Positions 4,329 to 20,556 are shown, counted from the first letter of the stretch. The stretch is 32,000 bases of DNA from Alcanivorax sp. (GCA_022449455.1 JAKUPL010000003.1:254307-286306); one strand, 5' to 3'. Numbers and translations: made by a program. Notes: generated from the sequence alone by a model not told the origin.

Positions 4329-4369
4329 GAAACTGTCCGCCCCGAATAACAACCGCCTAGGGTACCAGC

Positions 4370-4549: not shown

Positions 4550-4564
4550 GTCAGTGATCATAAT

Positions 4565-4599: not shown

Positions 4600-4634
4600 A
4601 GGGCGCTCGACCACCCATTAAGAGGAGCTGCCGC

Positions 4635-4814: not shown

Positions 4815-4826
4815 AGGAGCTTGGTG

Positions 4827-5353
4827 ATGACGATACCGCCAGGCTCCTTACTGCGTTCTCGTGCAATCGAAACAGAGATGTAGAAAACTTCCTCACCCAC
4901 CCCTCCAAAGCCATCCGCTTCGAAAAAACGGATAACGCACGAACTTATCTGATCCTTGATGACGAGACCGGCCATATTCTTGGGTACTTTTCCATTTCGT
5001 TTAAAGAACTCGTCCTGGAAGACCTCCAGATCAGCAAATCCAAGGTAAGGCGCCTTGACGGCATCTCAAAAAATGCGGAACGCATCCGTGCTTTTTTGAT
5101 TGGTCAATTGGGAAAGAACACATCCATCGCTCAAAACCCGATCACTCTCGAGATAATTCTGGAAGAAATCTACGCGGTTATTTCGGAAGCACGGAATCTG
5201 ATCGGCGGCCGTATTATTATTCTGGAATGTGAAGATTCACCCCAGCTTATTCAGTTGTATGAGCGCAACGGGTTCTCCCTGATCCAAACCGCGGATGAGG
5301 CACAAGCTGAGCTACGCACCATGTATATACACGTGGCGGAGTGCGTGGATTAA
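4827..5353 (+). pseudogene. GNAT-fold acetyltransferase resembling TacT/AtaT-type toxins; start region out of frame (frameshift, sequence error or non-canonical initiation)
   Basis: The track reports only the TTG-initiated C-terminal fragment 5096..5353. The same frame is open back to 4691 and reads ...DDDTARLLTAFSCNRNRDVENFLTHPSKAIRFEKTDNARTYLILDDETGHILGYFSIS...IRAFLIGQLGKN...GGRIIILECEDSPQLIQLYERNGFSL, but it has no ATG, GTG or TTG before 5096. AAGGAG plus ATG at 4827 is in another frame and stops at 4881-4883. A 1-nt indel just after the ATG would join the two frames. Confidence 0.55.
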
Positions 5354-5367
5354 GCTCCAGTATGAAT

Positions 5368-5395
5368 ATCTGGACGGATGCCAGATCTATTTTTC
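5368..5395 (+). terminator. Candidate Rho-independent terminator of the GNAT cassette
   Basis: ATCTGG-acggatg-CCAGAT is a 6-bp stem with a 7-nt loop, followed by CTATTTTTC. It starts 15 nt after the stop at 5353. Confidence 0.4.
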
Positions 5396-5404
5396 AACCA
5401 AAAA

Positions 5405-5460
5405 ATCCAGCCCCGTGCGCGGCATCCCCTCCCGGTAGGACGGCAGCACCAGCACATGGC
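5405..5460 (-). pseudogene. Internal remnant of the same or a similar GT4 paralog (encodes ...HVLVLPSYREGMPRT...)
   Basis: About 55 bp align with 6811-6865 of the intact GT (ESHVLVLPSYREGMPRTVLEAAS). The 38-bp core is about 90% identical by hand alignment. The frame ends shortly after (..GLDFLVEK*). Confidence 0.55.
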
Positions 5461-5478
5461 AAGCGCCGGCGGTGATGA

Positions 5479-6057
5479 TCAGCTAACCAGGAGCTGTTCC
5501 GCCTTTTGCATTAATTCGGGGGCAGCGGCACGGCTCTGGTGGTATTCCTTGGTGCTGTTCAGCATTCGTATCGCGGAAGCCAGCGTGATAAGCGATTGCG
5601 CGGGCTCTGGTGTCGCCTGAATTTTCCGGTTTTCCATCATCCATGCGAGAACTTCATCCGCGTGCCAAAGGGGGGTACCTCCGGATACCCGAGGCGATGG
5701 GAATCGCGTGGCGGTTCTTTTCACTTCACCTTTCGCATACTTACGCATCGCCTGCCGGGTGACTTTTGCCAGCCTGTCCGTCATCAGCTCGGCGAGCTCA
5801 GATAAATTAAGCAAATCCGGCCCTGCAGAGACCAATCGCGCTTCTGGGATAGCCGTTTTTACGTCTCGCACGGCGGTTTGCAACGCTTCCCAGGCGGTCG
5901 GCGCTTCTCGGTTGAAGTCGAGGGACAGATAGCCGTGGGAGGCGAGGCCGACCAAGGCATCGTCACAGCCTGCCTCGAACAGAGCGTCCAGCCAGAGTTC
6001 GGGGTCGGCCTCGCCGTCAGGAAGCTGAAAATGAAGCTGGAATTCAAACGTACTCAT
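5479..6057 (-). CDS. Two-domain DNA-binding protein: HicB-like alpha/beta N-domain plus helix-turn-helix; candidate antitoxin
   Basis: 192 aa. The N-terminus (FEFQLHFQLPDGEADPELWLDALFEAGCDDALVG...) is followed by LLNLSELAELMTDRLAKVTRQAMRKYAKGE...TPLWHADEVLAWMMENR, which looks like an excisionase/MerR-like HTH. Its ATG forms an ATGA overlap with the upstream small gene. Confidence 0.55.
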   Translation of the reverse strand: MSTFEFQLHFQLPDGEADPELWLDALFEAGCDDALVGLASHGYLSLDFNREAPTAWEALQTAVRDVKTAIPEARLVSAGPDLLNLSELAELMTDRLAKVTRQAMRKYAKGEVKRTATRFPSPRVSGGTPLWHADEVLAWMMENRKIQATPEPAQSLITLASAIRMLNSTKEYHQSRAAAPELMQKAEQLLVS

Positions 6058-6311
6058 TCCCCACCTCCGGTGTACTTACACTTTTCCACCCATTTATTGA
6101 TAGCTCGCGCATGGGCCTCGGCGTTCCTGGGCGTGGACCAGATCCCATTTCGGCAGAACTTGCCACAACGGCACTCCGGGTCGTTATTCGGGCACTCGAG
6201 AACCCCCCAGGCGTGTGCACTTTTGCCGGCCTTTCGCACCGTCCACCCTCTGGCTTCAGCATACTGAAGCGCCTTTTCGATGGCCGCCTTGGGATGCTTT
6301 CCACGCGCCAT
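6054..6311 (-). CDS. Small Cys-rich protein with a HicA-like N-terminal pattern; candidate toxin
   Basis: Trimmed to M16 (MARGKHPKAAIEKALQYAEARGWTVRKAGKSAHAWGVLECPNNDPECRCGKFCRNGIWSTPRNAEAHA...). GGGGGAAG lies upstream of this ATG, and the predicted -35 overlaps the longer track start at 6356. I recall the HAWG...CP.N...CRCG.FC...IWSTP pattern as a conserved hypothetical family found next to HTH proteins. Confidence 0.5.
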   Translation of the reverse strand: MARGKHPKAAIEKALQYAEARGWTVRKAGKSAHAWGVLECPNNDPECRCGKFCRNGIWSTPRNAEAHARAINKWVEKCKYTGGGE

Positions 6312-6327
6312 ATTGATCTTCCCCCAA

Positions 6328-6356
6328 AACCTATCGTTTCTTATTTTTGTTGTCAA
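6328..6356 (-). promoter_or_regulatory. Candidate sigma70 promoter for the HicA-like/HTH pair
   Basis: On the minus strand, TTGACA (6356..6351) is followed by a 17-nt spacer and TAGGTT (6333..6328), 16 nt upstream of the ATG at 6311. Confidence 0.4.
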
Positions 6357-6457
6357 GTGACAACAAACTCAATGAGATCGAGCCTTAGAGAATCAGGTCC
6401 CAGATCCCGCACCATCTCCTTGTGCGCGAACAGCAGTTTGTAGTCGGAACGCTGATC
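6357..6457 (-). pseudogene. N-terminal fragment of an Rpn/YhgA-like (PD-(D/E)XK) recombination-promoting nuclease/transposase
   Basis: The minus-strand frame reads DQRSDYKLLFAHKEMVRDLGPDSLRLDLIEFVVT* with no start codon. The DYKLLF.H.EMVRDL motif matches the N-terminus I recall for Rpn-family proteins of gammaproteobacteria. Only about 33 codons remain. Confidence 0.35.
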
Positions 6458-6539
6458 TTATGAACAGTATAAAGAGCGAGCGGACCGGCATCTGTCAGTC
6501 AGAACGGAAAAGGATGTAAGCCTAAGCGGACGCAGGCTT

Positions 6540-6551
6540 GGGGGGGGGGGG
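6540..6551. repeat. G12 homopolymer (C12 on the coding strand) abutting the stop codon of the GT at 6552..7667
   Basis: Counted directly: g at 6540 through g at 6551, followed by tta (stop, minus strand) at 6552-6554. Confidence 0.95.
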
Positions 6552-7667
6552 TTACGGGCAGGCGCCCGCGAGGCAATCCAACCCCCCCCGCACCCCCAGG
6601 CGCTGGGCGAACTCCGCGTCGATGCGCCGGCGGGCGGCCTGCCCCGCCGCCGCCAGGGTCTCGGGGGGCAGCGCCAGGCAGTCCTCCATGCAGGCGGCCA
6701 GGGACTCGGCGCTCTTCACCTCACACAGCCAGCCGGTTTCGCCGTTCACCACCGCCTGGCGGCAGCCGGGCACGTCGGTGACGATGGCGGGGCGGCCCAT
6801 GGAGGCGGCTTCGAGCACGGTGCGGGGCATGCCTTCGCGGTAGGAGGGCAGCACCAGCACATGGCTCTCGGCCAGCCAGGGGCGCACGTCCTCCTGCTCG
6901 CCCAGGTACTCCACCACGCCCTCGCTCTGCCATTGGGCCACTTCATCCAGATGGATGGCGCTGCTGTTGCTCACCCCCAGCGGGCCGATCAGCAGAAAGC
7001 GGGCGTCCGAGTGCCGCCGGGCCACCTGCCCCGCCGCCGCCACGTACTCGCGCACGCCCTTATCGGCGATCATCCGCGCCACCATCACAAAGGTGAACGG
7101 CCCCTCGTGGGGCAAGGTGCTGAACGGAAAGCGCAGGGTGTCCATGCCCGAGCCCGGCAACAGCACCGTGGGCGTGCCCTTCAACAAGCCGGTGGCGTTG
7201 AACACCTGCAGGTCTTCCTCGTTCTGGAAGAACACACAGCGCGCCCCGCGGTTGGCGAAGGCATACAGCGAGCGCACCCGCCGATACAGCCAGCTATCGT
7301 GAATAAACGCCGTGCCCAGGCCAGACACATTGTTCGCATAGGGAATGCGCAGCAGACGGCACACCAGGCCGGAATAGATGTTGGCCTTCACGGTGAAATT
7401 GAACACGAACGCCGGCCGCAGCCGGCGTAACGCAAAAAACAGCCGCAACAGGCTCAGCGCCTCGCCCAGCAGACGCGTGCCCTTGCCATCCAACTGCAAC
7501 GGCACGAACTCCACCCCCAGCTCTTCCACCAGCTTGGTGGCATAGCGATCCGGCGGCGCCATGGTGACCACGCGATGGCCCTGGGCCACCAGCTCAGCCA
7601 GGGTGCCGCGACGGAAGTTGTAGAGATACCAGGCGGTGTTGGAGACGAGAACGATGGGCGCGATCAT
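6552..7667 (-). CDS. Glycosyltransferase family 4
   Basis: 371 aa. Has SNTAWYLYNFRRG at the N-terminus and the GT4 C-terminal signature LPSYREGMPRTVLEAASMGRPAIVTDVPG. Its ATG forms an ATGA overlap with the wzy stop. Confidence 0.8.
   Translation of the reverse strand: MIAPIVLVSNTAWYLYNFRRGTLAELVAQGHRVVTMAPPDRYATKLVEELGVEFVPLQLDGKGTRLLGEALSLLRLFFALRRLRPAFVFNFTVKANIYSGLVCRLLRIPYANNVSGLGTAFIHDSWLYRRVRSLYAFANRGARCVFFQNEEDLQVFNATGLLKGTPTVLLPGSGMDTLRFPFSTLPHEGPFTFVMVARMIADKGVREYVAAAGQVARRHSDARFLLIGPLGVSNSSAIHLDEVAQWQSEGVVEYLGEQEDVRPWLAESHVLVLPSYREGMPRTVLEAASMGRPAIVTDVPGCRQAVVNGETGWLCEVKSAESLAACMEDCLALPPETLAAAGQAARRRIDAEFAQRLGVRGGLDCLAGACP
6582..6589 (-). repeat. C8 (+) / G8 (coding strand) homopolymer inside the last 12 codons of the GT gene
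   Basis: Counted directly. It encodes part of ..GVRGGLD... The remnant copy at 4471-4549 has agccgccc at the equivalent position. Confidence 0.95.
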
Positions 7668-8713
7668 GAAGCGAAGGGGTACATTTGGTAGGGGAGCCAG
7701 GCATCTGCATTCGCGGCGAAATTCAACCAGACAAGCTGTACCAACGCATAGTAAAAAACCGTGCCTATAACGATAAGGGCTCTTGAATACCCATCAGACG
7801 AGACAGTATAAAGCCTGGAAAAAACATACAATTGCAGCGGAATTAAATACAAGGCTACTCGATCAGTGGCCGTAGACGAAACAACGACCAGAGGAATACA
7901 AGCCAACGAAAATATAGAAATCCAACGCCAGAGCTTAAAATCTTGCTCAGTAGAAACAATACGGCGCCCTACAAAAAGAAAAATTAGCGCCGGTACAGAA
8001 TTCATTAGAACTCGGACCAAGCCGCCCTGCGATTCGTACTCAGCAGTAACGTAATTGGCCCATAGTTTATCCACCGAATCGAGAACGAAAAAATAAGCCG
8101 CCAATAGCGAAATAACACCGACCCAAAAAAAATTCCAAGCTCTATGCTTGGAGGCAGACAGGGCAGCAACGGGCAACATCAAAACTACGGACTTGTGGAA
8201 CGTTGCACCCAACAACACCCAGAAAAAAAAATTTATGCTTTTACCTCTAGACAAAGATGCCAGACCCAAAAAAAGGAAACCTAGCGCCGCAGACTGTCTT
8301 GTGTACCCCATGGAGACCACAATTATTAAATAAGGTACCGCCACAACTAAACACAACCAAGCCTTTGGCTGATCCAAGGAAAACCGGACAACACCAGTCA
8401 TTACAATCATAGCGCAAATCAGATTCACCCATACTATGCCGCCGCCCAAATGATTGACTATATAATTAATTAGATAATAGCCTTGATCTCCCGATATCAA
8501 AACCTCCCAAAGATCTCGCCCGCCCCTCGATTCCAAATGATCCAAGTATGTAAACCAATCGCCGCCAACCTCCTGGCGACAACCGATAACCAGAACAAAA
8601 ATGACCCAAGCGAGACACCAAAGGATTAAATTTGCGCTGCGACCAAGCCGAAAGCTAAACAGCAAACCCAAAAAAGGTATAAGGAAAAGAATCCAATAAA
8701 CAATCACAAGCAA
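7664..8713 (-). CDS. wzy: Polytopic membrane protein, EpsG-like putative repeat-unit polymerase (Wzy)
   Basis: 349 aa and very hydrophobic, with multiple predicted TM segments. Contains the RQEVGGDWFTYLDHLE motif that resembles the EpsG family. Low GC. Located among GTs in a wzx-containing cluster. Confidence 0.6.
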   Translation of the reverse strand: MLVIVYWILFLIPFLGLLFSFRLGRSANLILWCLAWVIFVLVIGCRQEVGGDWFTYLDHLESRGGRDLWEVLISGDQGYYLINYIVNHLGGGIVWVNLICAMIVMTGVVRFSLDQPKAWLCLVVAVPYLIIVVSMGYTRQSAALGFLFLGLASLSRGKSINFFFWVLLGATFHKSVVLMLPVAALSASKHRAWNFFWVGVISLLAAYFFVLDSVDKLWANYVTAEYESQGGLVRVLMNSVPALIFLFVGRRIVSTEQDFKLWRWISIFSLACIPLVVVSSTATDRVALYLIPLQLYVFSRLYTVSSDGYSRALIVIGTVFYYALVQLVWLNFAANADAWLPYQMYPFAS

Positions 8714-8761
8714 TACTCAACAAACAAAGGAAAAAGATATCCGGCACTTAATTCTTTGTTA

Positions 8762-9823
8762 TTAAACATCAAACCTAAGCCCGATAAGCCATTCTTGCAT
8801 GCGATCCGCCCAGGAAGCACGAATATTTACGCCACGGTATTCAGCTCGCATTGAATCAAGAAACTTTATAATTTGCTCTCGAGCGACCTCAGGGTCAGCA
8901 AAGTCAACACTAAAGCCCACCCGGTGACGCTCAACCTCATCGCTGTAACCCAAAGTGTTACTCTGCGCCGCAATGAATCGCTCATTCACGATGTAGTCGT
9001 ATAGCTTCAAAGGGCTTCCGGGGCTAATCCTGTTCGCCTTGACTGGCAGCAGGCAAACGTCAGCCGCACGAATCAAATCTGCACAACCGCTTTCTTCCAA
9101 CGGAGTTATGTTAATACAGTTCTCAGAACCTTCATAACGAGAAATATCGCCACCACCAACAACAATTTTTATATTATCACCATACTCATTGAATTTTTTC
9201 TGTAACGACAGAAGATAGTCTACGCCATGCCACTCCGACGCCCCTCCGGTAAAAACCAAATAAACGGCATCTTGAGATAAGCCAAATTTTTCTCTGGCTC
9301 TTTCCTTTGACAAGGATGATCTTGACCTCACATCAAACCCATTGTACGTAAAAAAATCAGACTCACTCCCGACACCATTAGATCGATACCAAGTCAACAG
9401 GTCGGGATGATTATAAATCCTAACATCCGACTTTTTATTAGTCCAATCAGCGACTATCGCCAAACCATGTACAACCATTCTTTTCACGCCATGAAATCTT
9501 AATAACTTAAGCTCCCCCAGCGTATCGGCATGAACCTCCCTAACCGTTTTTACATTAAGAACTTTAGCAAAACCAACTGAAAGAAACCCAACATGTCCTC
9601 TACTTATAAATATACTGGGCCGCCAAAAAATCAGGTACGCTAAGACAAGCGCCTCTATCAGAAAAATCTCCATAAATCTCAAAGGTTTCGATCGCATGTT
9701 CGCACTTAGCACCTTAAAATCATCAACGATTAAACTAAGAGCTTCCAATTTCTGCCTCGTTGCACGATCTTTCCCTGAAGAAGATTGTTTTAGATGAAAA
9801 TCGCAGGCGTACAACACTTTCAT
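8762..9823 (-). CDS. Glycosyltransferase (GT-B, GT4-like)
   Basis: 353 aa. The C-terminal domain carries VFTGGASEWHGVDYLL...SPGSPLKLYDYIVNE, which is reminiscent of the GT4 E-x7-E region. Low GC. Confidence 0.55.
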   Translation of the reverse strand: MKVLYACDFHLKQSSSGKDRATRQKLEALSLIVDDFKVLSANMRSKPLRFMEIFLIEALVLAYLIFWRPSIFISRGHVGFLSVGFAKVLNVKTVREVHADTLGELKLLRFHGVKRMVVHGLAIVADWTNKKSDVRIYNHPDLLTWYRSNGVGSESDFFTYNGFDVRSRSSLSKERAREKFGLSQDAVYLVFTGGASEWHGVDYLLSLQKKFNEYGDNIKIVVGGGDISRYEGSENCINITPLEESGCADLIRAADVCLLPVKANRISPGSPLKLYDYIVNERFIAAQSNTLGYSDEVERHRVGFSVDFADPEVAREQIIKFLDSMRAEYRGVNIRASWADRMQEWLIGLRFDV

Positions 9824-9862
9824 GATTCTTAAACCTTCACATGTTTGGATTTTCCGAAGGCA

Positions 9863-10999
9863 TTATTTGAAACTTGAAAAATAATTAAGACCAGCTTTAG
9901 TATTCGTGCAACCAGAAACAGCCTCAAAAGATCGTTTCAAAACATGCATCTTATCAACGTCTGATAGCGACAGAAAACGACTTATCTTATTTGCTATATC
10001 CACGGCATCAGCAGCACCAACCAAATACCCGTTAAAACCATCTACAACAATGCCATCTATTCCTTCCCCCACATGACCGATCACCAAACACCCCATAGCC
10101 ATCGCTTCCAAGTAAGCCAATCCGAGAGTTTCCGGTTTGCTAGGCATTATGTATATGCAAGAATCTTTTAAGAAATCAAAAACCTCTTCTTTTCTTCTCC
10201 AACCCGTAAAAAAAACACAATCGCCCAGGGCGAGATTGCAAACAAGCGACTTTAACTTTTTTAAATCTGGACCATCCCCCACTATCATTAAACTAGCCGA
10301 GACGCCGCGCTCATGTAATATCGGTAACGATTCGATTATTTTATCCACATTTTTTAAAGGCAACAAAGCGCCACAAAAAATCAATTTCACTACTTTAGAC
10401 TTACTGCAGAGATAACGCCCATCAAAGAGGTTTCTACTTCTGCCTGCCTCAATAAGCTTATCATCAATCCCCGAGTACACTACGCCCTTGACTTCGATAT
10501 TTCCGAATCGATCAAGCAATTTTCTTTTTATTGAGTCTGATCTAGCAAAAACACCATCATTATTTTCGATGGAAAGCTTTAAAGTTTTCTGGAAGAAATC
10601 CCCTTGATGAACCACAAGATAGTGACGTTTCGTGTTCAATGGTAATATCTTATTTGCGCGATAGTAACTCATCGACATGTGCGATATCACCGAATCATAC
10701 TGAGAAGCTGGCAGATACTTCCTTACAAAAAGCTTTGAGAGAAACGAAAGAAATCGAGTTCTATACCCAAAGATAGGGATATCGATTATTTTAACATTAC
10801 CTACGTAGCTAATTCCTATCTTTAAACGAATTTCTTTTGAAATAACTTGATTAAATCGAAGTACACCAACCACCATCATTCCGCCCTGAATGGCACTTTC
10901 GACCAAATCTTTCACTGCGTGCGTTTGATGGCCTCTTTCTCTGGTATCGGTATCGGGGTACAAATCCGTGCAAATCAAAAATCTAGTTGCATTCGTCAT
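9863..10999 (-). CDS. Glycosyltransferase family 4
   Basis: 378 aa. Carries the classic motif IYIMPSKPETLGLAYLEAMAMGCLVIGHVGEGIDGIVVDGFNGYLV. Confidence 0.75.
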   Translation of the reverse strand: MTNATRFLICTDLYPDTDTRERGHQTHAVKDLVESAIQGGMMVVGVLRFNQVISKEIRLKIGISYVGNVKIIDIPIFGYRTRFLSFLSKLFVRKYLPASQYDSVISHMSMSYYRANKILPLNTKRHYLVVHQGDFFQKTLKLSIENNDGVFARSDSIKRKLLDRFGNIEVKGVVYSGIDDKLIEAGRSRNLFDGRYLCSKSKVVKLIFCGALLPLKNVDKIIESLPILHERGVSASLMIVGDGPDLKKLKSLVCNLALGDCVFFTGWRRKEEVFDFLKDSCIYIMPSKPETLGLAYLEAMAMGCLVIGHVGEGIDGIVVDGFNGYLVGAADAVDIANKISRFLSLSDVDKMHVLKRSFEAVSGCTNTKAGLNYFSSFK

Positions 11000-11044: not shown

Positions 11045-12232
11045 TTACCCATCACAGGATTTCAAAACAGAAGCCAATAATTGGGTTGTTTTTCTTTCTA
11101 TTTGTTCCCAACCCCGCATTCCCATCAAGATTTCTCTATTCGTATTTCGTTCAGAACCAGAAAGCATTGAATGTAAAATTCCTGGATTATGCGTAATATC
11201 AGATGTTGAATTTATAAATACACCTCTTTTTTTATAGTACTCAAAAAAAGGGTTCTCTTCATTTAAGAAAACTCTAGCGCCCATATAAAGCGCTGAAGCG
11301 ATATTGGCGCCCGCTTGTTGCCTTTTATGATTCATGACCACAACAGAGCATGTTGAAATAATATCTATATAGTCCGAAAACTCTAAAAAATCGATCAGAG
11401 GCTTGAATTTTTTTCCAAAGTAGCGACGCCCTTCTTCCACGATAATCTCTCGATATCTCTCGTCTCCATAGCTCAACGGAACAATTATTTCGACATTTTT
11501 GTCATCCAAATGTGCATTCATTAATTCGAAAACATCTGAATGATTATTGGTTGGCGTAGCACTGTTACCAATCAGTATATTATTACCATTTGGAGCTGTA
11601 TACTTCTTGAGGCCATCGAACGACTTGGCTGATATGCCGTAGTTCCAGTCAAGATACATCGGAAAACTTTCACCATGATACATCTTTCTAACCATTTCAT
11701 ATTCCGATTCAAGCACAGGCGCGAACCATTTAATATTTTTTATGGTCTTCTTTTTATTTCTCCCTCCTTTATACACAATATAACGTAAAAATCTCTTCAG
11801 CTCCTTTACGCAGCTTTTTTTCTTCGGATTCATGGCACCAACGATTGATCGAGTCCGAGGCATCAACATATCTTCAGAATCTTTATATATTAAATCGTAA
11901 TAGTCAAACCCCATCCCAACCCATAAGAAATCAACCCTACAACCACAACGTGCAACGAGCTCGAGATTAAAAGCATTAAGCCCATGCAGAATCACGACAT
12001 CATAACTTTGAAGTTTTTTTATAAATTTAGAGCTCAGAAAGGAAAATTTCGACACTCTAATTGGCAAGATACTTTTTAAATGTTTTATTCTTTTACTTTT
12101 GTCTGGAAGATAATAATCGCTGCACGAAGGCGCTACTTTTTCGAATACATCATAAGCCGTATCGGGAAACTTCTCATCTCGGATAATATGTGCAATTCTT
12201 AAATCTGAGAAGCCTTCCATATTACATATCAT
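11045..12232 (-). CDS. GT56-family transferase (WecF-like, TDP-4-amino/acetamido-4,6-dideoxyhexose transferase)
   Basis: 395 aa. The C-terminal half matches the pattern I recall from E. coli WecF: ILIGNSATPTNNH (WecF ILVGNSGDRSNEH), VPLSYG, LEFSDYIDII, HKRQQAGANIA (WecF ARQQGIGTL), LNEENPFF (WecF LNRENPFW). An alternative start is M5 at 12220. Confidence 0.7.
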   Translation of the reverse strand: MICNMEGFSDLRIAHIIRDEKFPDTAYDVFEKVAPSCSDYYLPDKSKRIKHLKSILPIRVSKFSFLSSKFIKKLQSYDVVILHGLNAFNLELVARCGCRVDFLWVGMGFDYYDLIYKDSEDMLMPRTRSIVGAMNPKKKSCVKELKRFLRYIVYKGGRNKKKTIKNIKWFAPVLESEYEMVRKMYHGESFPMYLDWNYGISAKSFDGLKKYTAPNGNNILIGNSATPTNNHSDVFELMNAHLDDKNVEIIVPLSYGDERYREIIVEEGRRYFGKKFKPLIDFLEFSDYIDIISTCSVVVMNHKRQQAGANIASALYMGARVFLNEENPFFEYYKKRGVFINSTSDITHNPGILHSMLSGSERNTNREILMGMRGWEQIERKTTQLLASVLKSCDG

Positions 12233-13046
12233 AACCTAAAAGTTCCGCTTCTTTTGAACACATTCTTTTAATGGTTTGATAGTTTTCAGCAAAAAAACAC
12301 TTAGTATCTATCTTTGAATTGCCTTTACTTTGATACTGCTTATCTAAAAAGGCAGATATATCATTATTTACCTGCAAGCCAACCTCGTTCGCCAGCTGTT
12401 TAACATAAGCGTCCTTGTTAATTAAAAAATCTTCGTACTTCAAGAGCACAAAATTTTCTTTATTTTCTAAATATGTTCTTGCTCCAACTTTCCATCTATA
12501 AGCCAAAGCATCAACATAATTAGACGCCACATACCCCATCCATCTAGTATCCAAGTTAATTCTCCATGCAGGGGATTCTTTGACCAATGGATAACTTTCA
12601 ATGTCTAATGTTTCCAAGTCACCAGGCACTCTCAACCTATTTAATATGCTTCTAATGTTATCCATTGGGTGCCGGACGATCATAACGAATTTGGCTCGAG
12701 GGAAAACTCGGGATAACTCTTTGTAAAAAAAAGTAAGGCCGGGCTCTTTAATGATTTCTTTCTTAAACGATTCTCGATACTTATAAATATACTCTTCAAA
12801 AGATCCAATTCCGTATTGGATAAGAACTTTCCATTCAGGATGACGGATCGAGCGCAGCACATCCAGCGTAGCATCTTTACCTACGGCTTGAGCCAACAAG
12901 GCAGATATCGCCGTTGTTCCAGATTTTTGGACGCCGAGTATTATAACAGGAGCATCTCCTGATAAGGATCGGCAAAAATCGATAGCCTTTTTCTTTTGAT
13001 GGATATCCCACTCTGATTGCAGCTTATTCATTGCCCTTCGAATCAT
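12222..13046 (-). CDS. Sulfotransferase (PAPS-dependent)
   Basis: 274 aa. Has the 5'-PSB-like loop VIILGVQKSGTTAISALL and the 3'-PB-like FVMIVRHPMDNIRSILNR. Its ATG forms an ATGA overlap with the wzx stop, and its 3' end overlaps the GT56 start. Confidence 0.7.
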   Translation of the reverse strand: MIRRAMNKLQSEWDIHQKKKAIDFCRSLSGDAPVIILGVQKSGTTAISALLAQAVGKDATLDVLRSIRHPEWKVLIQYGIGSFEEYIYKYRESFKKEIIKEPGLTFFYKELSRVFPRAKFVMIVRHPMDNIRSILNRLRVPGDLETLDIESYPLVKESPAWRINLDTRWMGYVASNYVDALAYRWKVGARTYLENKENFVLLKYEDFLINKDAYVKQLANEVGLQVNNDISAFLDKQYQSKGNSKIDTKCFFAENYQTIKRMCSKEAELLGYDM

Positions 13047-14482
13047 GACTTCCTCTTATTAAAGAAATATTTGACTGTAGCCAGCAGTTTCGGATCCATA
13101 AGAGTAGAAAGAGAAATATAAAGAATCACAAAAGAAATACTGGAAAAAACGACATAAGCTGCGTCCCCGATTACGTTGTTCGACCCGATGTAAAAAACCA
13201 AGAGGCCTAGGAATAGCGACAATGAAAATGGAAGCTTTATATCTCTCCATTGCTCCATCAGCGTATAGTCAATAAGCTTTTCAGAATAGTACTTATTTGG
13301 ATAGTACGAAATTACCGAATTTATGATTTGCGCCCATAACACTCCCAATATTCCAAACCTGATTCCAATCCATAAGGTAAGTGCCAGAAGAGCTTTTTTG
13401 AATATTTGCAAGCCAAGCAGTAAATCTGAGCGGCCAAGGACTCTTAGTATGTTTAAATTTATCGAATGGAGCGGTAACAGCAGCGCGGCGATACATAAGA
13501 GCTGGAAATAGAAGTGAGCATGGTGCCATTTTTCTGGCAACATCAATGTGTATAACGGTTTAGCCAAAGCGGCAAGGATAGCCACAGAAGGGAAATAAGC
13601 AAACACAGTGACTCTTATAACTTTACGATAATCACTCTTCAGCTTTACAAGATCATCCTGTTGCTTTGATAGCGCTGGATAGCTGACCTTTTGTATTGAG
13701 TTTATTATTTGTCCTGTTATTAATTCTTTCATTCTCTCCGCAAAGAAGTAAAGGCCTGCCGTGTGCGCGGAGAAAACTTTCGCTATAATAACGACATATA
13801 TATTCTTAAAAACTGTTTCTAGTGCCCCCGACAAAAAGAGCTTATAGCCAAAAGAATACATTTCTTTTAAAGAGGTGAAACTGAATGATAATCCGGGAAG
13901 CCATTTATTAAGAATCCAAAGGAACAAAGTTTGGAAAAGAGCGGCCATCAGCATTTGTATGACCAGGGCCCAAACGCCAAAACCCTCTTTCGCTAAAAGT
14001 ACAGCGATTACCCCGGATAACAGAACGGCAGGAAAAGTAGCTTTTAATTGAGTTTTGAAATCTAGTTTTCTGCTTAGATCAGCGATCTGAACCACCTGGA
14101 AGGAATTTATCAGTATCGCTATTGAAGAAACGCGAATCAGAATTTCTAGATTAGGCTCATTGTAAAAGGCCGAGATAGCAGGGGCACAAATATAGAGAAG
14201 AGCATATGACACCACCCCCAGACCAATATTTGAGTAAAAAGCTGTATTATAATCTTCTTCTTTTGCATTCTTTTTTCGGATTAGAGCTTGTGTGAAGCCT
14301 GAATCCATTAATGACTGACCTAGCGCCAGGAATATCGCCATCATCGAGATAAGCCCGAAATCTTCCGGCGTCAACAACTTAGCTAAAATTATTGTTATGA
14401 TGATCCCCATTCCACGACGAGCCAACTGCTCTAGAAAATTCCAGATCACTCCGATGACCGTACGATTTGAGATACGTAGCAT
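13043..14482 (-). CDS. wzx: Wzx-type flippase (MOP/polysaccharide biosynthesis protein family)
   Basis: 479 aa and polytopic. The N-terminus GVIWNFLEQLARRGMGIIITIILAKLLTPEDFGLISMM is typical of Wzx/RfbX proteins. Confidence 0.8.
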   Translation of the reverse strand: MLRISNRTVIGVIWNFLEQLARRGMGIIITIILAKLLTPEDFGLISMMAIFLALGQSLMDSGFTQALIRKKNAKEEDYNTAFYSNIGLGVVSYALLYICAPAISAFYNEPNLEILIRVSSIAILINSFQVVQIADLSRKLDFKTQLKATFPAVLLSGVIAVLLAKEGFGVWALVIQMLMAALFQTLFLWILNKWLPGLSFSFTSLKEMYSFGYKLFLSGALETVFKNIYVVIIAKVFSAHTAGLYFFAERMKELITGQIINSIQKVSYPALSKQQDDLVKLKSDYRKVIRVTVFAYFPSVAILAALAKPLYTLMLPEKWHHAHFYFQLLCIAALLLPLHSINLNILRVLGRSDLLLGLQIFKKALLALTLWIGIRFGILGVLWAQIINSVISYYPNKYYSEKLIDYTLMEQWRDIKLPFSLSLFLGLLVFYIGSNNVIGDAAYVVFSSISFVILYISLSTLMDPKLLATVKYFFNKRKS

Positions 14483-14576
14483 TGGGTTCAGTTATTTAAA
14501 CTCAGAAAATTTTATACGCCGCATTTTCAGAAATCTCTAACAACACGGAGCAACCATGAATTCAAGAAAGTGGAAT

Positions 14577-15407
14577 CTAATAATTCAGCCAAGTCAGTTG
14601 CTTCTCGGCGATAGCATTAAATTCATTTATATTTGAATCGCTCAACTCAGATTTAAAACCACCAATCCGTCCAGGGTCCAACCCCTCAAGAGTCTTGGCC
14701 TTCCACTGCAGGAACTCTTTCGGCTCATCGTTATTACGCTCATAACCGAGCATAAGCGGATGAAAATCCAATCCCAAATGACGACAAACGTACCTTAAAG
14801 TTTCTTCCGGAGATACCAAAAGATCCTCATATTTGATAAAAATCGCGCCTTCCTTTACTGAAGCCATCATTATGTCGACACTATCTGCCCATTCCATGGC
14901 AATTTCTGCGATATCATTCTTAAGTATAGGCCTATACTTCGATACGATGTTTTTCTCAGACAACTTCCTGTACGAACAGGCCACGTCTCTACCATCTCGG
15001 ACAATAAATATCTTTTTTGACCCACTGAAGTATTTCTTTATTAGGTCCATGTTATTTATATAATAGTTATTTTTATCACCAACGATCTCTGCGTTCTTCT
15101 CTGTTTTTCTTGCATATGCAAGATACACGCAGCGACAAAGGCCTGCATAGTTTTTCGGTTGATTCCTTTGAATCTGATCATCTATAGCATCAAAATCCAG
15201 CCCCCATGTTTCAAATTTTCTAGTATTCAACACATCCATAATGTAATTATATGTTTGTGTGTCTTCGAACTCACCTTTGTATCGATCTGCCAACCATAGA
15301 GCAAAACCACACTCCGGGGGAACGGTGATAGATGGATGACTATTTAAAATTAAACGAAATAATGACGTTCCGGATCTTGGGTTTCCTAGTATAAAAAAAT
15401 CAGCCAT
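14577..15407 (-). CDS. Sulfotransferase (Sulfotransfer_3-like, PAPS-dependent)
   Basis: Trimmed to M37 ([27 protein letters not shown]...). Has the 5'-PSB PRSGTS and the 3'-PB IFIVRDGRDVACS. The ATG at 15407 overlaps the aminotransferase stop by 8 nt (ATGGCTGA). Confidence 0.75.
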   Translation of the reverse strand: MADFFILGNPRSGTSLFRLILNSHPSITVPPECGFALWLADRYKGEFEDTQTYNYIMDVLNTRKFETWGLDFDAIDDQIQRNQPKNYAGLCRCVYLAYARKTEKNAEIVGDKNNYYINNMDLIKKYFSGSKKIFIVRDGRDVACSYRKLSEKNIVSKYRPILKNDIAEIAMEWADSVDIMMASVKEGAIFIKYEDLLVSPEETLRYVCRHLGLDFHPLMLGYERNNDEPKEFLQWKAKTLEGLDPGRIGGFKSELSDSNINEFNAIAEKQLTWLNY

Positions 15408-16500
15408 CTTGTTGCTCCTTAACAACAAACACAATTGTTTCAGAGATATCCTCTGGCATTGAAGAATACATAGGGAAGCAAAGAATGCGTTTTGACAAAT
15501 CTCGACTGACAACAAAAGCCGCAGGAGTATCCGAAAAGTTCAACAGATCCAAGGAAGGGTAAAAATATCTTCTTGGATGAATCTCCAATTTCCCTAAAAT
15601 ATTTATTAAATCCCTAACTTTATGCTTGCTTTCAAATGCAGCAGGAAAGTAAGTGTAATTATTGTCACAATGAACATTTCTTTTTTGTAGTTGAGCAACA
15701 TCCTCAATTCCGAACTTATACCTATCCCATATTCCTTGGCGAGATTTCAGGTGCTCGGCCATTTCATCCAACACACAAAGTCCCATCGCCGCTTGGAATT
15801 CATTCATCTTAGCGTTGATTCCAAGCTCATCGATCTGCTCAGGCCCGGAAAGCCCGAAGTTGATCATTAATTTCGCTTTTTCCAGGTCCTCTTTGCGTTT
15901 GAAGACGATGGCACCACCTTCCACTGTGTGAAAGAGTTTTGTGGCGTGGAAACTGAGTGTTGCCGCGTCGCCATGTTTCAGCAGGCTTTCACCTTTATAG
16001 GTCACGCCAAAGGCGTGGGCACCGTCGTAAATCACCTTAAGATTGTGCTTGCGGGCAATTTCATTGATGGCTTCTACCTCGCAGGCATTGCCGAATACGT
16101 GCACAGGCACGATAGCTCGAGTACGTGAGGTGATGGCCGGTTCAATGTTCGCCGGGTCCAGGCACCAGGTGTCCGGATCGATGTCGGCGAACACTGGCTC
16201 CACACCTTCCCACTTCAAAGAGCTCGCCGTGGCAACAAAAGAAAACGGTGTGGTGATAGCTTCCGCGGGGGTGTCAGAAGCCTGCCCTGAGACGCCCAGG
16301 ACCCGGTAGGCGATCTGCAGCGCCAAGGTGCCATTGGCGACCAGTAACAGGTTTTCAACGCCCAGGTACTCTTCCAACCTCCGGGTCAATTCCTGAACCA
16401 GGGGGCCGTTATTGGTCAGCCAGTTCCGTTCGTATATGCCGTCGATGTAGCGATCCAGCTTCTTCCGGTCAGGCAGATAGGGCTTAGTGACTGGAATCAT
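15400..16500 (-). CDS. DegT/DnrJ/EryC1-family PLP aminotransferase, probable dTDP-4-keto-6-deoxyhexose 4-aminotransferase (VioA/WecE-like)
   Basis: 366 aa. Contains [43 protein letters not shown] and LSFHATK (PLP lysine). It lies directly downstream of rmlB-rmlA with no 3,4-isomerase, so a 4-amino product is the simplest reading. Confidence 0.75.
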
Positions 16501-17365
16501 GCTCTTCCACCAGATCGAGAAGGTATTTCCCGTAACCGTTCTTCGCGAGGCTATCGCCGATTACGGCCACTTCCTTGGCGCTGAGCCAGCCGTTGTAGAG
16601 AGCAATTTCTTCCAGACAGGCGATTTTGTAGCCCTGGCGCTTCTCTACGGTCTCCACGAACTGGGCGGCTTCCAGCAGGCTTTCGTGGGTACCGGTGTCC
16701 AGCCAGGCAAAGCCACGACCCAGCACTTCCACGCTCAGGTCGCCTCTCTCTAAATAAGCCTGGTTGATACTGGTGATTTCCAGCTCGCCACGATGAGAAG
16801 GCTTGACCGCCTTGGCCATCTCGATCACATCGTTGTCGTAGAAATAGAGCCCGGTTACCGCAAAGTGTGACTTCGGCTTATCCGGCTTCTCTTCAATGGA
16901 CACAGCCTTCTTGTTGTCGTCGAATTCGACCACGCCAAAGCGCTCGGGGTCTTTGACCTGATAGCCAAATACCGTAGCGCCGGATTCTCTGGCAGCCGCT
17001 TCTTTCAGCTTGGGCGAGAAGCCTTGTCCGTAGAAGATGTTGTCGCCCAGCACCAGACAGACCCGATCATCGCCGATAAAGGATTCACCCAGGATAAACG
17101 CTTGAGCGAGCCCGTCCGGGCTGGGCTGTTCTTTATACGTCAGGTTGATGCCGTAACGGCTGCCATCGCCCAGCATGCGCTGAAAGCCGGACATGTCCTC
17201 CGGCGTGGTAATGATCAGAATGTCGCGGATACCCGCCAACATGAGCACCGACAATGGGTAGTAGATCATCGGCTTGTCGTAGATCGGAAGAAGCTGCTTG
17301 GAGACACCCATGGTGATGGGATAAAGGCGGGTTCCACTGCCGCCTGCGAGAATGATGCCTTTCAT
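16484..17365 (-). CDS. rmlA: Glucose-1-phosphate thymidylyltransferase
   Basis: 293 aa. Starts with [57 protein letters not shown], the canonical RmlA/RfbA N-terminus. Confidence 0.93.
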
Positions 17366-18450
17366 GCGCTTTCCCTCTGGCCGGTACCCAGCCGTTCACG
17401 TTGATAGCTTCCATCTTGCACCCGGGCACACCAGTCGTGGTTGTCCAGGTACCATTGCACGGTTTTCTTTAATCCCGTTTCGAAGGTCTCCTGAGGCACC
17501 CAGCCCAGCTCCCGGTCGATCTTGCCGGCGTCGATGGCGTAGCGAAGATCATGGCCGGGGCGGTCCTTCACAAAGGTAATCAGGTCGCGGTAGTGGTTTA
17601 CCGATTCAAGTCTGGCATTGTCACCCGGCGGAACCAGCTCCTGGAGAAGATCGCAAAGCGTGTGCACCACCTCAATGTTCTGCATTTCGTTGTGGCCACC
17701 GATATTGTAGGTCTCTCCCACCGCACCTTCAGTAACCACTTTGTAGAGCGCGCGGGCGTGATCTTCCACGTAGAGCCAATCGCGAATCTGGTTGCCTTTC
17801 CCATAGACCGGCAAAGGCTTGCCTTCCAAGGCGTTGAGGATCATCAGTGGAATCAGCTTTTCGGGGAAATGGTAGGGCCCGTAGTTATTGGAGCAATTCG
17901 TGACCACCACCGGCAAACCGTAGGTGCGGTTCCAGGCCCGCACCAGATGATCGGAGCTGGCTTTGCTGGCCGAGTAAGGGGAACTCGGCGCATAGGAAGT
18001 CAGCTCAGTGAACAGCCCGTCCGGGCCTTCCAGATCGCCATAGACTTCGTCGGTGGAGACATGGTGCAACCGAAAGCGGCTACGCTGTTCATCTTCCAGC
18101 CCGTTCCAATAGTGGCGGCAGACTTCCAGCAGCGTGTAGGTGCCGATGATGTTGGTTTCGATAAAGGCGGCCGGGCCGTCAATGGAGCGGTCCACATGGC
18201 TCTCCGCCGCCAGGTGCATCACCGCATCTGGCTTGTGCTCGCTGAAGACACGTTCCAGCGACGCCCGGTCGCAGATATCAACATGCTCGAATTGGTAGCG
18301 GCCATCCGTGGAGACCGTCGCCAGGGATTCAAGATTGCCGGCATAGGTCAGCTTGTCCACATTGACGACGCTGTTACCGGTATTACCAATAATATGGCGC
18401 ACGACGGCGGAACCGATAAACCCGGCGCCGCCTGTTACTAATAATTTCAT
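17362..18450 (-). CDS. rmlB: dTDP-glucose 4,6-dehydratase
   Basis: 362 aa. Has [14 protein letters not shown], the SDR catalytic [10 protein letters not shown], and the typical RmlB C-terminus. Its stop forms an ATGA overlap with the rmlA start. Confidence 0.93.
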
Positions 18451-18549: not shown

Positions 18550-20556
18550 TTATAATTTAAAATCCAAAGCCTCCATTATTTTGCCAACAACTTTGGCACT
18601 GCCTTTACCGTTAATATGATTATTGTCAGAATATAATGGCATTCCATTCTCAGCAACTACGCAGCGATCAGGAACAATCGAGTCACAGAAGATATTCTCC
18701 GGATAAACTCTTTTAAGTTTTTTGCTATCAGGAATTTGATCCAAAAGCGAATTTGTGACTTTAGCTCTATCTATAAATACTTTATGACTGGTTGACAAAT
18801 CTTTTTGGTCAACTCCTAAGAATTGTATTTCTTTTGCCATATAAATAGGCACATCCCATCCGGCTTCAGGAACAGGATAAACCAACACCACCTGTTTACC
18901 CGCAGCTATCAACTTTTCTACCGTTTGCGCGTAGAGGGCGCCCATTTCCCCATACCTTTCCGGATTCTCGATAAACCTTCTCCCCTTACCAACGGGCAGC
19001 CCATACACTTCTCTGTAGGGCTCTTTCCCACCTTCATGATTGTCGAAAGTTCGACCCATAGTTTTCAAGATATACCTTCCATGGAGCACCACTACTTTGA
19101 TTTCATTACTTTTAACTAAATATTGATAAACTTTATTGTTATATTCAACACAACGATCCAATTTTTCAAAATTATAATAATTCAAAACCGGCAGACAGCT
19201 GCTGTAACTGAACTCCCTGAGACCGTAACCTTTACCATTTAACGCCGCACCCAGTTCATCAGCAATAGTCATGGCATGGCTGTCACCCCAAATAGCGACA
19301 GCGACATTATTATTATCACCATAGACACATGAATCATTCGGCTCTACGAACTTTCCTGGTGTGGAAAAACACTCTGACTTGCGCCGGTTATCATCACCAC
19401 TATATTGAAGAACTTCTAGCGACCTCTTCTCAAAGCGCCCAGGGTACCCATCAAAAAAATTTATCATTAGGCCTATAAAAATCAGGGCCGCTGTGCCTGC
19501 CGCGCCACTTTTGAATATGGACGATCTCCCGTAACGCTTCCTATCACGGAACGGTTGCTCGCAAAAACGCCATGACAGATATGCCACGACAAAAGATACC
19601 AAACATAGCATCAACAAGTTCATATCGGATGGTTCGCTCACACTTCTGATACGTGCAAACGCAATAATCGGCTGGTGCCATAAGTAAGCGCTATAACTAA
19701 TAAGTCCAACAGCAACTAAAGGTTTACAACTTAGAATTTTCCCAATCCAAGTATCAGATCCTGAGCAAGCAATTAGCCCCATCACTCCCAGAACGGGCAA
19801 TAAGGCATACAAACTGGGAAACCGAACACTTCCGTCAAAGATCAGAACACTGGCCGCTATTGCAGCCAAACCCAGGATGGAAATTATTTGTCTCAACCAG
19901 TAACTTCCAACTGTTTTTCCAGCTACAGTGAGGGCCATTATCGCACCAGCCCCCAACTCCCAAGCCCTTGATGGAAGAAGAAAGAAATTTGCAGACACAA
20001 GGGTTCTCGATAGCAATTCCGCCAGTGCCAGGCTTAACAAAGTAAGTATTGCTATCACTGTAACGACAGTGTTTTGCTTGGCTTTACCTATAATCAAAAG
20101 GAGAATTGGAAAAAGCACATAGAATTGCTCTTCCACCGCCAAACTCCATGTATGCAGCAGCGGATTCAGCTCAGCCTCGGTGGCGAAATACCCAGATTCA
20201 TGCCAAAACAATACATTGGAAGAGAAAATCCCAACGGCAGCCATGCCCCGGCCAAACTCTTTGAAATCTTCTGGAAACTGCCATAAATAAGCAAAGAACA
20301 AGGAAACAAAACACATCAAAAAGAGCGCAGGCAATATCCTCCGCGCACGTCTTTCATAGAAATTCACTATAGAGAAGCTTTTCTCTCTTATTTCATCGTA
20401 AATTATTCCCGTTATCAGATATCCGCTGATAACGAAGAATATGTCAACACCGATAAAACCGCCGGAAAAACCTTCAAACCCCGCATGAAAAAAAACGACC
20501 GGAATCACAGCGAGAGCACGCAGCCCATCTATCTCCGGCCTGTATTTAATAGACAC
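18550..20556 (-). CDS. Membrane acyltransferase_3 fused to a C-terminal SGNH domain (OafA/YrhL-like polysaccharide O-acetyltransferase)
   Basis: 668 aa with a GTG start. RPEIDGLRALAVIPVVFFHAG...GVDIFFVISGYLIT is the AT3 signature. It has about 10 TM segments followed by a soluble domain (WGDSHAM). Low GC, with AT-rich flanks on both sides. Confidence 0.85.
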   Translation of the reverse strand: MSIKYRPEIDGLRALAVIPVVFFHAGFEGFSGGFIGVDIFFVISGYLITGIIYDEIREKSFSIVNFYERRARRILPALFLMCFVSLFFAYLWQFPEDFKEFGRGMAAVGIFSSNVLFWHESGYFATEAELNPLLHTWSLAVEEQFYVLFPILLLIIGKAKQNTVVTVIAILTLLSLALAELLSRTLVSANFFLLPSRAWELGAGAIMALTVAGKTVGSYWLRQIISILGLAAIAASVLIFDGSVRFPSLYALLPVLGVMGLIACSGSDTWIGKILSCKPLVAVGLISYSAYLWHQPIIAFARIRSVSEPSDMNLLMLCLVSFVVAYLSWRFCEQPFRDRKRYGRSSIFKSGAAGTAALIFIGLMINFFDGYPGRFEKRSLEVLQYSGDDNRRKSECFSTPGKFVEPNDSCVYGDNNNVAVAIWGDSHAMTIADELGAALNGKGYGLREFSYSSCLPVLNYYNFEKLDRCVEYNNKVYQYLVKSNEIKVVVLHGRYILKTMGRTFDNHEGGKEPYREVYGLPVGKGRRFIENPERYGEMGALYAQTVEKLIAAGKQVVLVYPVPEAGWDVPIYMAKEIQFLGVDQKDLSTSHKVFIDRAKVTNSLLDQIPDSKKLKRVYPENIFCDSIVPDRCVVAENGMPLYSDNNHINGKGSAKVVGKIMEALDFKL

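Follow-up and report, generated by a model that had tools for sequence, protein, structure and literature searches.

What do the two sulfotransferases predicted in the capsule locus of an Alcanivorax species sulfate, and are they equivalent? The locus lies in a 32,000-nt stretch of DNA from a metagenome-assembled genome (MAG) of Alcanivorax sp., an oil-degrading marine bacterium (GCA_022449455.1), hereafter called the window. All the genes relevant to this question are located on its minus strand, and the two sulfotransferase genes, named here ST1 and ST2, are listed with their neighbors in Table 1. An earlier reading of this DNA (the original prediction) had proposed that both enzymes contribute to a sulfated surface polysaccharide. 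The analyses described below indicate that both are, very probably, active sulfotransferases that sulfate the predicted capsule. They also suggest, from the pairing of ST2 with a sugar aminotransferase and its location in the slot of an N-acyltransferase, that this enzyme acts at the level of the nucleotide sugar and possibly on nitrogen. The acceptor, the N- or O-regiochemistry, and the timing of sulfation are those that we infer from gene context.

Identity of ST1 and ST2

The ST1 and ST2 amino acid sequences scored above the curated cut-offs of Pfam sulfotransferase families. ST1 matched PF13469 (6.5e-15, 56.4 bits with a cut-off of 27), PF00685, and PF17784, and ST2 matched PF13469 (2.7e-27, 96.9 bits with the same cut-off) and PF00685. 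NCBI holds entries that are 100% identical to each protein and already carry the name "sulfotransferase". Conserved columns were determined in family alignments of 35 sequences each. The signatures for binding of 3′-phosphoadenosine 5′-phosphosulfate (PAPS) quoted in the original prediction are present in both proteins, on invariant or near-invariant columns. In ST1, residues K41, G43, and T45 of the 5′-phosphosulfate-binding loop, QKSGTT, are conserved at 90% or more, and R125, P127, R132, and S133 of the 3′-phosphate-binding motif, VRHPMDNIRS, are invariant. The ST2 family has 34 invariant columns, including P10, R11, S12, and G13 of the loop PRSGTS, R137, D138, D141, V142, and S145 of the motif VRDGRDVACS, and P30, P31, and E32 of a PPE motif. 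The distance between the arginine and the serine of the 3′-phosphate-binding motif is eight residues in both proteins (R125/S133 and R137/S145), the spacing that is typical of this motif.

AlphaFold2 models built on the same alignments reached a predicted local distance difference test (pLDDT) score of 93.7 for ST1 and 95.4 for ST2. When the models were matched against the PDB with Foldseek, all 50 matches listed for each had the PAPS-binding sulfotransferase fold, with TPST1/2 and the CurM sulfotransferase (CurM ST) leading. The check by Pfam and structure prediction that had been proposed thus found the fold in both proteins. The tyrosylprotein sulfotransferases (TPST) and the sulfotransferase domains of CurM/OLS are the closest solved folds and sequences, and their PRSGT loop, PPE, and RDxRDxxxS motifs align with those of ST2. 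However, the structural alignments show no more than about 16–21% identity, and these enzymes transfer sulfate to the hydroxyl of a tyrosine or the beta-hydroxyl of a polyketide rather than to a sugar. By sequence, ST2 matches CurM ST at 4.3e-09 over a region spanning the PRSG loop and the PPE motif, and ST1 is more remote. The ST2 residue E32 aligns with the PPE of CurM ST and is a candidate catalytic base. ST1 has no invariant histidine, and its near-invariant residues E101 and D62 are candidates only. Pfam matches, motifs, and models together classify ST1 and ST2 as predicted PAPS-type sulfotransferases.

Both genes are tightly coupled to their neighbors. Direct reading of the DNA confirmed the three overlaps described in the original prediction: an ATGA formed by the wzx stop and the ST1 start, 11 nt between ST1 and the GT56 glycosyltransferase gene, and 8 nt between the aminotransferase gene and ST2, whose start is preceded by AAGGAG. 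A gap of 94 nt separates ST2 from wzx. Alternative starts exist for two of these genes. The NCBI model of ST1 (269 aa) is consistent with the second ATG (13031), which would replace the ATGA by an 11-nt gap, and the GT56 gene could start at its second ATG, 1 nt past the ST1 stop. The ST1 start at 13046 is favored because of the upstream AAGAGGAAG and the 277-aa homolog found in Alcanivorax sp. N3-2A. The spacing of wzx, ST1, and the GT56 gene would be tight whichever start is used (overlaps, or gaps of 11 and 1 nt). These overlaps and the conserved synteny agree with the view that both genes are integral to the repeat-unit operon, and the possibility that they are passengers was discarded on the same grounds.

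It is very improbable that the two sulfotransferases are inactive passengers, that they act on a non-glycan substrate, or that they carry out a transient activating sulfation like that of CurM, in which the group is later eliminated. The best sequence match of ST2 among solved structures, the activating sulfotransferase of CurM, counts in favor of these explanations. Against this group of explanations stand the intact and invariant PAPS-binding and candidate catalytic residues, the translational coupling, and the synteny across lineages. CurM-like activating sulfation was rejected because a review summary shows 4-amino-4,6-dideoxyglucose (Qui4N) intact in the related polymer of Idiomarina zobellii, discussed below, so that elimination is unlikely.

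Pairing of ST2 with a C4 Aminotransferase

Relatives of ST2 were confirmed at 365 stretches in a scan of 185,579 species genomes (one genome per species). Gene contexts were counted in the best 80 of these stretches, of which 77 or 78 were evaluable depending on the count, and neighboring genes were identified with a crude open reading frame (ORF) finder followed by phmmer with a panel of 10 window proteins. A homolog of the DegT-family aminotransferase was found directly upstream of the ST2 relative, and co-directional with it, in 60 of the 77 evaluable loci, with gaps that were mostly between -8 and +30 nt. It was found within four genes in 73/78 loci. The two genes are adjacent in Gammaproteobacteria, many Bacteroidota, Nitrospiraceae, Geobacter, Treponema, Saccharimonadales, Rickettsiales, and a Methanosarcinaceae MAG. 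The ST2 family is widespread, and its pairing with DegT crosses bacterial lineages and includes one archaeal MAG. The gene that precedes the pair varies (ABC/Wzt, FkbM methyltransferase, Wzx, or RmlA), and the one downstream of the ST2 relative codes in most loci for a glycosyltransferase (GT2 at 34 and GT56 at 4 of 54 loci). Among the 25 commonest families listed before the pair or after ST2, none is an N-acyltransferase family, and a hexapeptide acyltransferase was near the ST2 relative in only 5/78 loci. The original prediction had called sulfated bacterial surface polysaccharides uncommon, which is overstated in view of the 365 stretches, the NCBI naming, and the sulfated capsular polysaccharide (CPS) clusters already published.

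The best PDB match of the window aminotransferase is 2PO3 (2.7e-52), which we take to be DesI, followed by perosamine synthases. Since the enzyme is of the C4 type and rmlA and rmlB are located directly upstream, its product should be a dTDP-4-amino-4,6-dideoxyhexose, and ST2 probably acts on this product. The loci of ST2 relatives make different polymers (Wzx/Wzy versus ABC transporter, GT2 versus GT56), and the conservation of 34 invariant columns despite these differences agrees better with a small substrate shared by the family than with a polymer that varies.

This pairing bears on the model put forward in the original prediction, in which both enzymes would be O-sulfotransferases acting on the polymer or the repeat unit, at two positions or on two sugars, with no link to the amino sugar. 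Both genes do lie within a repeat-unit operon, the contexts of the ST1 family are loose and centered on Wzx, and published sulfated CPS clusters have been described in these terms, as far as the accounts of these clusters go (PMC11641403, PMC11766843). Nevertheless, the model explains neither the 60/77 adjacency to one aminotransferase clade in otherwise unrelated clusters nor the 34 residues that stay invariant across loci making different polymers, and we regard it as improbable. What stood of the proposal of two enzymes with two sulfation positions or acceptors is that both are predicted sulfotransferases; they are probably not equivalent decorators, as ST2 is tied to the C4 aminotransferase.

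A further arrangement was observed on an Arcobacteraceae contig (L011:776-2897). A 349-aa sulfotransferase encoded there is distantly similar to ST2, and the start of its gene is overlapped by that of an aminotransferase-like protein, likewise distant. The same contig also has a canonical DegT-ST2 region. The aminotransferase–sulfotransferase pairing may extend beyond the ST2 family.

Exchange of ST2 with N-Acylation Modules

The locus of Alcanivorax sp. N3-2A is syntenic with that in the window. Its metallo-beta-lactamase-type (MBL) protein, RmlB, and last GT4 glycosyltransferase are 96%, 97%, and 91% identical to their counterparts, and the inner genes are 49–78% identical. The order in N3-2A is rmlB, rmlA, aminotransferase, hexapeptide acyltransferase, a 191-aa protein, beta-ketoacyl-acyl carrier protein synthase III (KASIII), acyl carrier protein (ACP), wzx, ST1, and GT56; its N-acylation module fills the exact position of ST2, between the aminotransferase and wzx. 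Both kinds of cassette were also found among the collected loci, DegT–hexapeptide acyltransferase–GT56 in L092, L106, and L101 and DegT-ST2-GT56 in L007, L008, L050, L077, and L083. No acyltransferase gene is present within the rml–aminotransferase–ST2–GT56 cassette of the window, and the sole hexapeptide acetyltransferase (3747-4469) is 11 kb away. The latter gene adjoins a second DegT-family aminotransferase gene.

The cassette can be compared with the dTDP-4-acetamido-4,6-dideoxygalactose (dTDP-Fuc4NAc) module of the enterobacterial common antigen of Enterobacteriaceae, which consists of RmlA/RffH, RmlB/RffG, WecE, the N-acetyltransferase WecD, and the GT56 enzyme WecF. Both include a thymidylyltransferase, a 4,6-dehydratase, a C4 aminotransferase, a modifier slot, and a GT56 transferase. 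They differ in that the slot of WecD holds ST2 in Alcanivorax and in that the aminotransferase is DesI-like, not WecE-like. Moreover, the Alcanivorax GT56 protein is over the Pfam cut-off, yet far below the WecF equivalog cut-offs. All enzyme classes that, to our knowledge, are encoded in coupled genes downstream of a sugar aminotransferase act on the newly formed amine. This regularity, the exchange between ST2 and N-acylation modules, the scarcity of acyltransferases near ST2 relatives, and the chemistry of I. zobellii favor nitrogen as the target of ST2, an assignment that we make tentatively on the basis of context.

Another type of cassette was observed at three loci (L100:6140-9900, L146:378-3000, and L132:423-4200). 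These encode a DesI-like aminotransferase, a WbqC-like protein (PF08889), a third kind of sulfotransferase (271–332 aa), and GT56, and in L132 there is one extra unannotated gene between those for the WbqC-like protein and the sulfotransferase. They represent a further lineage of sulfotransferases associated with this sugar module.

Comparison with Idiomarina zobellii KMM 231

One DegT-ST2-GT56 cassette, L008, belongs to a strain with a published polysaccharide structure, I. zobellii KMM 231. Its gene order is wzz, rmlB, rmlA, aminotransferase, ST2, GT56, wzx, wzy, two GT4 genes, a second sulfotransferase, a 332-aa protein, and a dehydrogenase, and identities to the window are 73% for rmlB, 80% for rmlA, 70% for the aminotransferase, 50% for ST2, 44% for GT56, and 48% for wzx. 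It differs from the Alcanivorax locus in having no ST1 homolog and in its wzz/wzy O-antigen layout, instead of a wza-wzc capsule. The second, distant sulfotransferase (322 aa) is encoded two genes upstream of a UDP-N-acetylmannosamine (UDP-ManNAc) dehydrogenase equivalog (L008:16964-20158), which we take to be linked to the pathway of L-GulNA, the 2-amino-2-deoxy derivative of L-guluronic acid. The intervening 332-aa protein had no match in Pfam, NCBIfam, or the PDB.

According to a review, the polysaccharide of this strain is built of a pentasaccharide repeat that comprises Qui4N, glucuronic acid, N-acetylglucosamine, GulNA, and N-acetylfucosamine (Qui4N-GlcA-GlcNAc-GulNA-FucNAc), in which the amino groups of D-Qui4N and of L-GulNA are free, the un-acylated Qui4N being unprecedented at that time; the section devoted to this polymer mentions no sulfate (PMC3210612, section 2.7). 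The structure, as the review gives it, ties the rml–aminotransferase–ST2–GT56 cassette to D-Qui4N without an N-acyl group. On this account I. zobellii has two sulfotransferases and two "free" amines, with ST2 in the Qui4N gene block. An O-sulfate stands out in nuclear magnetic resonance (NMR) spectra. A sulfamate is labile in acid and moves the resonances only slightly from those of a free amine. We infer that an N-sulfate on the Qui4N of I. zobellii could have been overlooked by NMR.

Several points weigh against N-sulfation. O-sulfation is by far the commoner chemistry, and the closest solved relatives of ST2, TPST and CurM ST, are O-sulfotransferases. The literature searches made here found no report of N-sulfated sugars in bacterial glycans or of N-sulfotransferases acting on nucleotide sugars. 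The DegT-WbqC-ST-GT56 cassettes show that a sulfotransferase can accompany a further modifying enzyme, and N-acyltransferases of the GNAT or formyl type were possibly overlooked by the neighbor calling except at positions -2 and +1. Idiomarina abyssalis makes a 2-O-sulfated, N-acylated 3-amino-3,6-dideoxyglucose (Qui3N), to judge from a title cited in PMC9695755. In addition, the argument from I. zobellii depends on a review summary (PMC3210612), and the polymer had been treated with mild base before it was studied. Base is expected to preserve an N-sulfate, so the authors would have had to miss it by NMR.

The usual chemistry, the solved relatives, the WbqC-containing cassettes, and the I. 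abyssalis sugar count in favor of an alternative in which ST2 O-sulfates a hydroxyl of the 4-amino-4,6-dideoxyhexose, such as O-2 or O-3, either on the nucleotide sugar or after transfer. ST1 would then modify a second position, and the amine would be free or acylated by an enzyme encoded elsewhere. This alternative fits the coupling to the aminotransferase equally well. However, the aminotransferase creates no hydroxyl, and it would be left unexplained why the two genes are strictly paired in different lineages and why ST2 trades places with N-acyl modules. Furthermore, an O-sulfate on the Qui4N of I. zobellii should be obvious by NMR and the review summary mentions none. We consider O-sulfation by both enzymes a strong rival, less probable than N-sulfation by ST2 but more probable than the model of two equivalent decorators.

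Gene Contexts of ST1 and Proposed Pathway

The contexts of ST1 relatives were counted in 35 metagenomic loci with at least six genes. In 11 of these a Wzx gene was close by, and the corresponding figures for a DegT aminotransferase and for GT56 were 9 and 7. This context appears looser than that of ST2, and ST1 looks more generic. Relatives of ST1 were found beside DegT–hexapeptide acyltransferase–GT56 modules (for example in L092, L096, L099, L101, and L106), and in Phaeodactylibacter (L077) the genes for DegT, ST2, GT56, and ST1 form an uninterrupted series. N3-2A retains the order wzx-ST1-GT56 despite its different N-substituent module. We propose that ST1 is an O-sulfotransferase for the same sugar module or for the lipid-linked unit, and that it would act independently of the N-substituent.

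In the pathway that these observations suggest, RmlA and RmlB would produce dTDP-4-keto-6-deoxyglucose, and the DesI-like aminotransferase would convert it to dTDP-4-amino-4,6-dideoxyhexose, probably D-Qui4N. ST2 would use PAPS to sulfate this dTDP amino sugar, with the new 4-amino group as the likeliest target and a sulfamate as the presumed product. The WecF-like GT56 enzyme would move the amino-sugar derivative onto the undecaprenyl-linked repeat unit, and ST1 would O-sulfate the lipid-linked unit before flipping. The PAPS could be provided by a stand-alone CysC, together with an SLC13 permease, both encoded at the head of the locus. As a whole, N-sulfation of the dTDP-4-amino-4,6-dideoxyhexose by ST2 combined with an O-sulfate added by ST1 is the reading that we put forward, with the reserve due to one that may well prove wrong.

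Predicted Supply of PAPS

The right edge of the window cuts through cysC, the gene for the adenosine 5′-phosphosulfate (APS) kinase. L001, a contig that comes from a different sample, matches 14.6 kb of the window with 100% identity and adds 6.5 kb beyond this edge. The fragment that the original prediction had noted near rfaH, on the same strand, is the end of a real gene, and one small ORF lies between the two. The full cysC in L001 encodes a stand-alone protein of 205 aa (NF003013, 307 bits with a cut-off of 163), which ruled out a cysNC fusion. The segment L001:3876-6750 includes, on the strand of the capsule genes, an SLC13/DASS anion permease gene (593 aa, with TrkA_C domains) and a small 23S-rRNA-IVP-type gene, both upstream of cysC, and cysC itself. 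The original prediction had proposed a check for cysD/cysN or a cysNC fusion past the edge, and none of these genes is present in the 6.5 kb that L001 adds.

An APS-kinase gene was found at 10 kb or less from the ST2 relative in 17/80 loci. By chance, far fewer than 1% of 20-kb segments would contain a given single-copy gene. Because 17/80 is far above this level, the linkage between cysC and ST2 is real and supports a PAPS-supply module; the role of cysC as a source of PAPS, also part of the original prediction, is plausible in this light. An SLC13 permease is encoded near cysC in the ST2-relative loci L013, L046, and L082, as in the Alcanivorax locus, and the permease and CysC possibly form a dedicated sulfate-uptake and PAPS module.

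Relation to Known Systems and Significance

Sulfated CPSs have been proven chemically in Vibrio sp. KMM 8419 and Cobetia marina KMM 1449, and the paper on the former takes the presence of PAPS genes and sulfotransferases in a capsule cluster as a hallmark of sulfated CPS (PMC11641403, PMC11766843). By the accounts given of these clusters, they resemble the Alcanivorax locus in belonging to marine gammaproteobacteria and in combining sulfotransferase and PAPS-supply genes, in Cobetia also with a sulfate permease. They differ in that export depends on an ABC transporter (kps) instead of Wzx/Wzy and Wza-Wzb-Wzc-Wzi and in that cysD/cysN accompany cysC, while in Alcanivorax there are only cysC and the permease. 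Their products, in the same accounts, are O-sulfated rhamnose, and no aminotransferase–sulfotransferase pair is described. A sulfated Alcanivorax capsule is well supported, albeit still a prediction, and the idea has already been published for other marine bacteria. A literature search on Alcanivorax capsules yielded reviews only. The predicted sulfated capsule is not new in kind; what is new is the conserved aminotransferase-ST2 pair in the N-acyl slot, and no description of such a pair or of its position was found in the literature.

If the N-sulfation reading is correct, ST2 would resemble the heparan sulfate N-deacetylase/N-sulfotransferases (NDSTs) in the PAPS-dependent N-sulfation of an amino sugar. 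It differs from them in having no N-deacetylase domain, and no NDST chain was among the 50 structural matches listed. The substrate of NDST is a polymer within the Golgi, whereas the amine used by ST2 would arise de novo on a nucleotide sugar. We know of no sugar N-sulfotransferase outside animal glycosaminoglycan synthesis, and ST2 would be the first. We suggest, with more caution than for the reaction itself, that ST2 could be the founding member of a family of N-sulfotransferases for nucleotide sugars, widespread among bacteria and archaea, whose enzymes make 4-sulfamino-4,6-dideoxyhexose from the products of C4 aminotransferases. Sulfation would then join the acetyl or other acyl, formyl, and methyl groups as a fourth way to cap a sugar amine, and the combined action of ST1 and ST2 could yield an N,O-disulfated residue that recalls heparin. 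Such a soluble prokaryotic enzyme, able to make N-sulfo sugars, would be relevant to heparin-like bioengineering. Bacterial glycans reported with free amino groups would merit re-examination, since some of these amines may be N-sulfated in vivo, the sulfamate, acid-labile and inconspicuous by NMR, having been overlooked. The main case would be the Qui4N of I. zobellii KMM 231, perhaps along with its GulNA, in view of the second sulfotransferase encoded near the genes of that pathway. On the conservative reading alone, the locus is one more predicted sulfated marine capsule, useful for the mining of sulfated polysaccharides.

Organization of the Capsule Locus

The features of the window are shown in Table 1. 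Those of a Group-1-type capsule are present: wzi, wza, wzb, and wzc in one operon, a flippase, a polymerase (an EpsG-type protein that matches PF14897 at 6.1e-58), and rfaH with an ops element. The sequence GGCGGTAG occurs once in the window, on the operon strand. Chance alone would give about 1.3 occurrences in the window, and this one is meaningful because of its position in the 255-nt wzi leader; a single ops element in the leader implies RfaH-dependent antitermination of an operon of about 24 kb. The window can thus be described as a predicted RfaH/ops-controlled wzi-wza-wzb-wzc, Wzx/Wzy capsule (K-antigen-type) operon of Alcanivorax. No initiating transferase of the WbaP or WecA type (Bac_transf or WecA) was found among the scanned window proteins; the locus continues past the left edge, and the gene may be located there. 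In a promoter and terminator scan of the 6–21 kb region the counts were the same as in shuffled sequences, with nothing in the gap between ST2 and wzx.

Table 1. Features of the Alcanivorax capsule locus, from the right to the left edge (window positions)
Feature	Position	Strand	Evidence
cysC, 3′ end (APS kinase)	31750-32000	-	translation; 82 residues and stop at 31750-31998
Acidic 136-147-aa ORF between cysC and rfaH	31163-31606	-	no family match; seen only on L001 and L002
rfaH-like NusG paralog	30315-30827	-	PF02357, 1.7e-24; 170-aa gene call from L001
ops element GGCGGTAG	30230-30237	-	in rfaH-wzi gap, within 255-nt wzi leader
wzi, wza, wzb, wzc	24714-30059	-	PF14052; PF02563/SLBB/Wza_C; PF01451; Wzz/GNVR/P-loop domains
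TviB-equivalog UDP-GlcNAc 6-dehydrogenase and TviC-like 4-epimerase	22326-24696	-	NF011729, NF011728
beta-CASP/RMMBL metallo-hydrolase (RNase-J-like)	20678-22132	-	96% identical, equal position in N3-2A
AT3-SGNH O-acyltransferase	18550-20556	-	PF01757 and PF19040; GC 43-48%
rmlB and rmlA	16484-18450	-	sequence; RmlB 97% identical to N3-2A
DesI-like C4 sugar aminotransferase (DegT_A)	15400-16500	-	PF01041, 1.8e-86; best NCBIfam match TIGR04427 (DesI)
ST2	14577-15407	-	276 aa; PF13469, PF00685
wzx flippase	13043-14482	-	PF13440, 2.7e-85
ST1	12222-13046	-	274 aa; PF13469, PF00685, PF17784
WecF-like GT56 glycosyltransferase	11045-12232	-	PF07429, 4.8e-14; NF002756, 5e-42, below cut-off
GT4, weak GT1-like protein, EpsG-type polymerase, GT4	6552-10999	-	family search; GT4 at each end of the block

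The G+C content is 60–70% in the flanks and about 36–48% at 8–16 kb and 18.5–20.5 kb. The low-GC stretch fits a horizontally exchanged serotype-specific region, which is a usual pattern. The AT3-SGNH gene sits as an insertion between the beta-CASP gene and rmlB, and N3-2A lacks it at its syntenic locus; it was probably acquired and would encode an O-acetyltransferase of the polysaccharide. The TviB equivalog scored 683 bits with NF011729 (cut-off 592), and the TviC-like protein scored 486 bits with NF011728, below the cut-off.

A terminator-like hairpin (6539-6518) was found directly past the last GT4 gene. The segment beyond the hairpin, 4470-6550 (about 2 kb, GC 54–57%), contains short ORFs only, none of them with a Pfam match, and at the equivalent place N3-2A has an AbiEi/AbiEii pair. 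Further to the left, the region 547-4469 encodes a GFO oxidoreductase, the second DegT-family aminotransferase (with a PDB match related to WbpE), and the hexapeptide acetyltransferase mentioned above, a trio that we take to resemble WbpB/WbpE/WbpD. Together with the TviB and TviC-like genes, this trio suggests that the polymer contains acetamido uronic acids, which may be 2,3-diacetamido sugars, and the capsule would therefore be strongly anionic even without sulfate.

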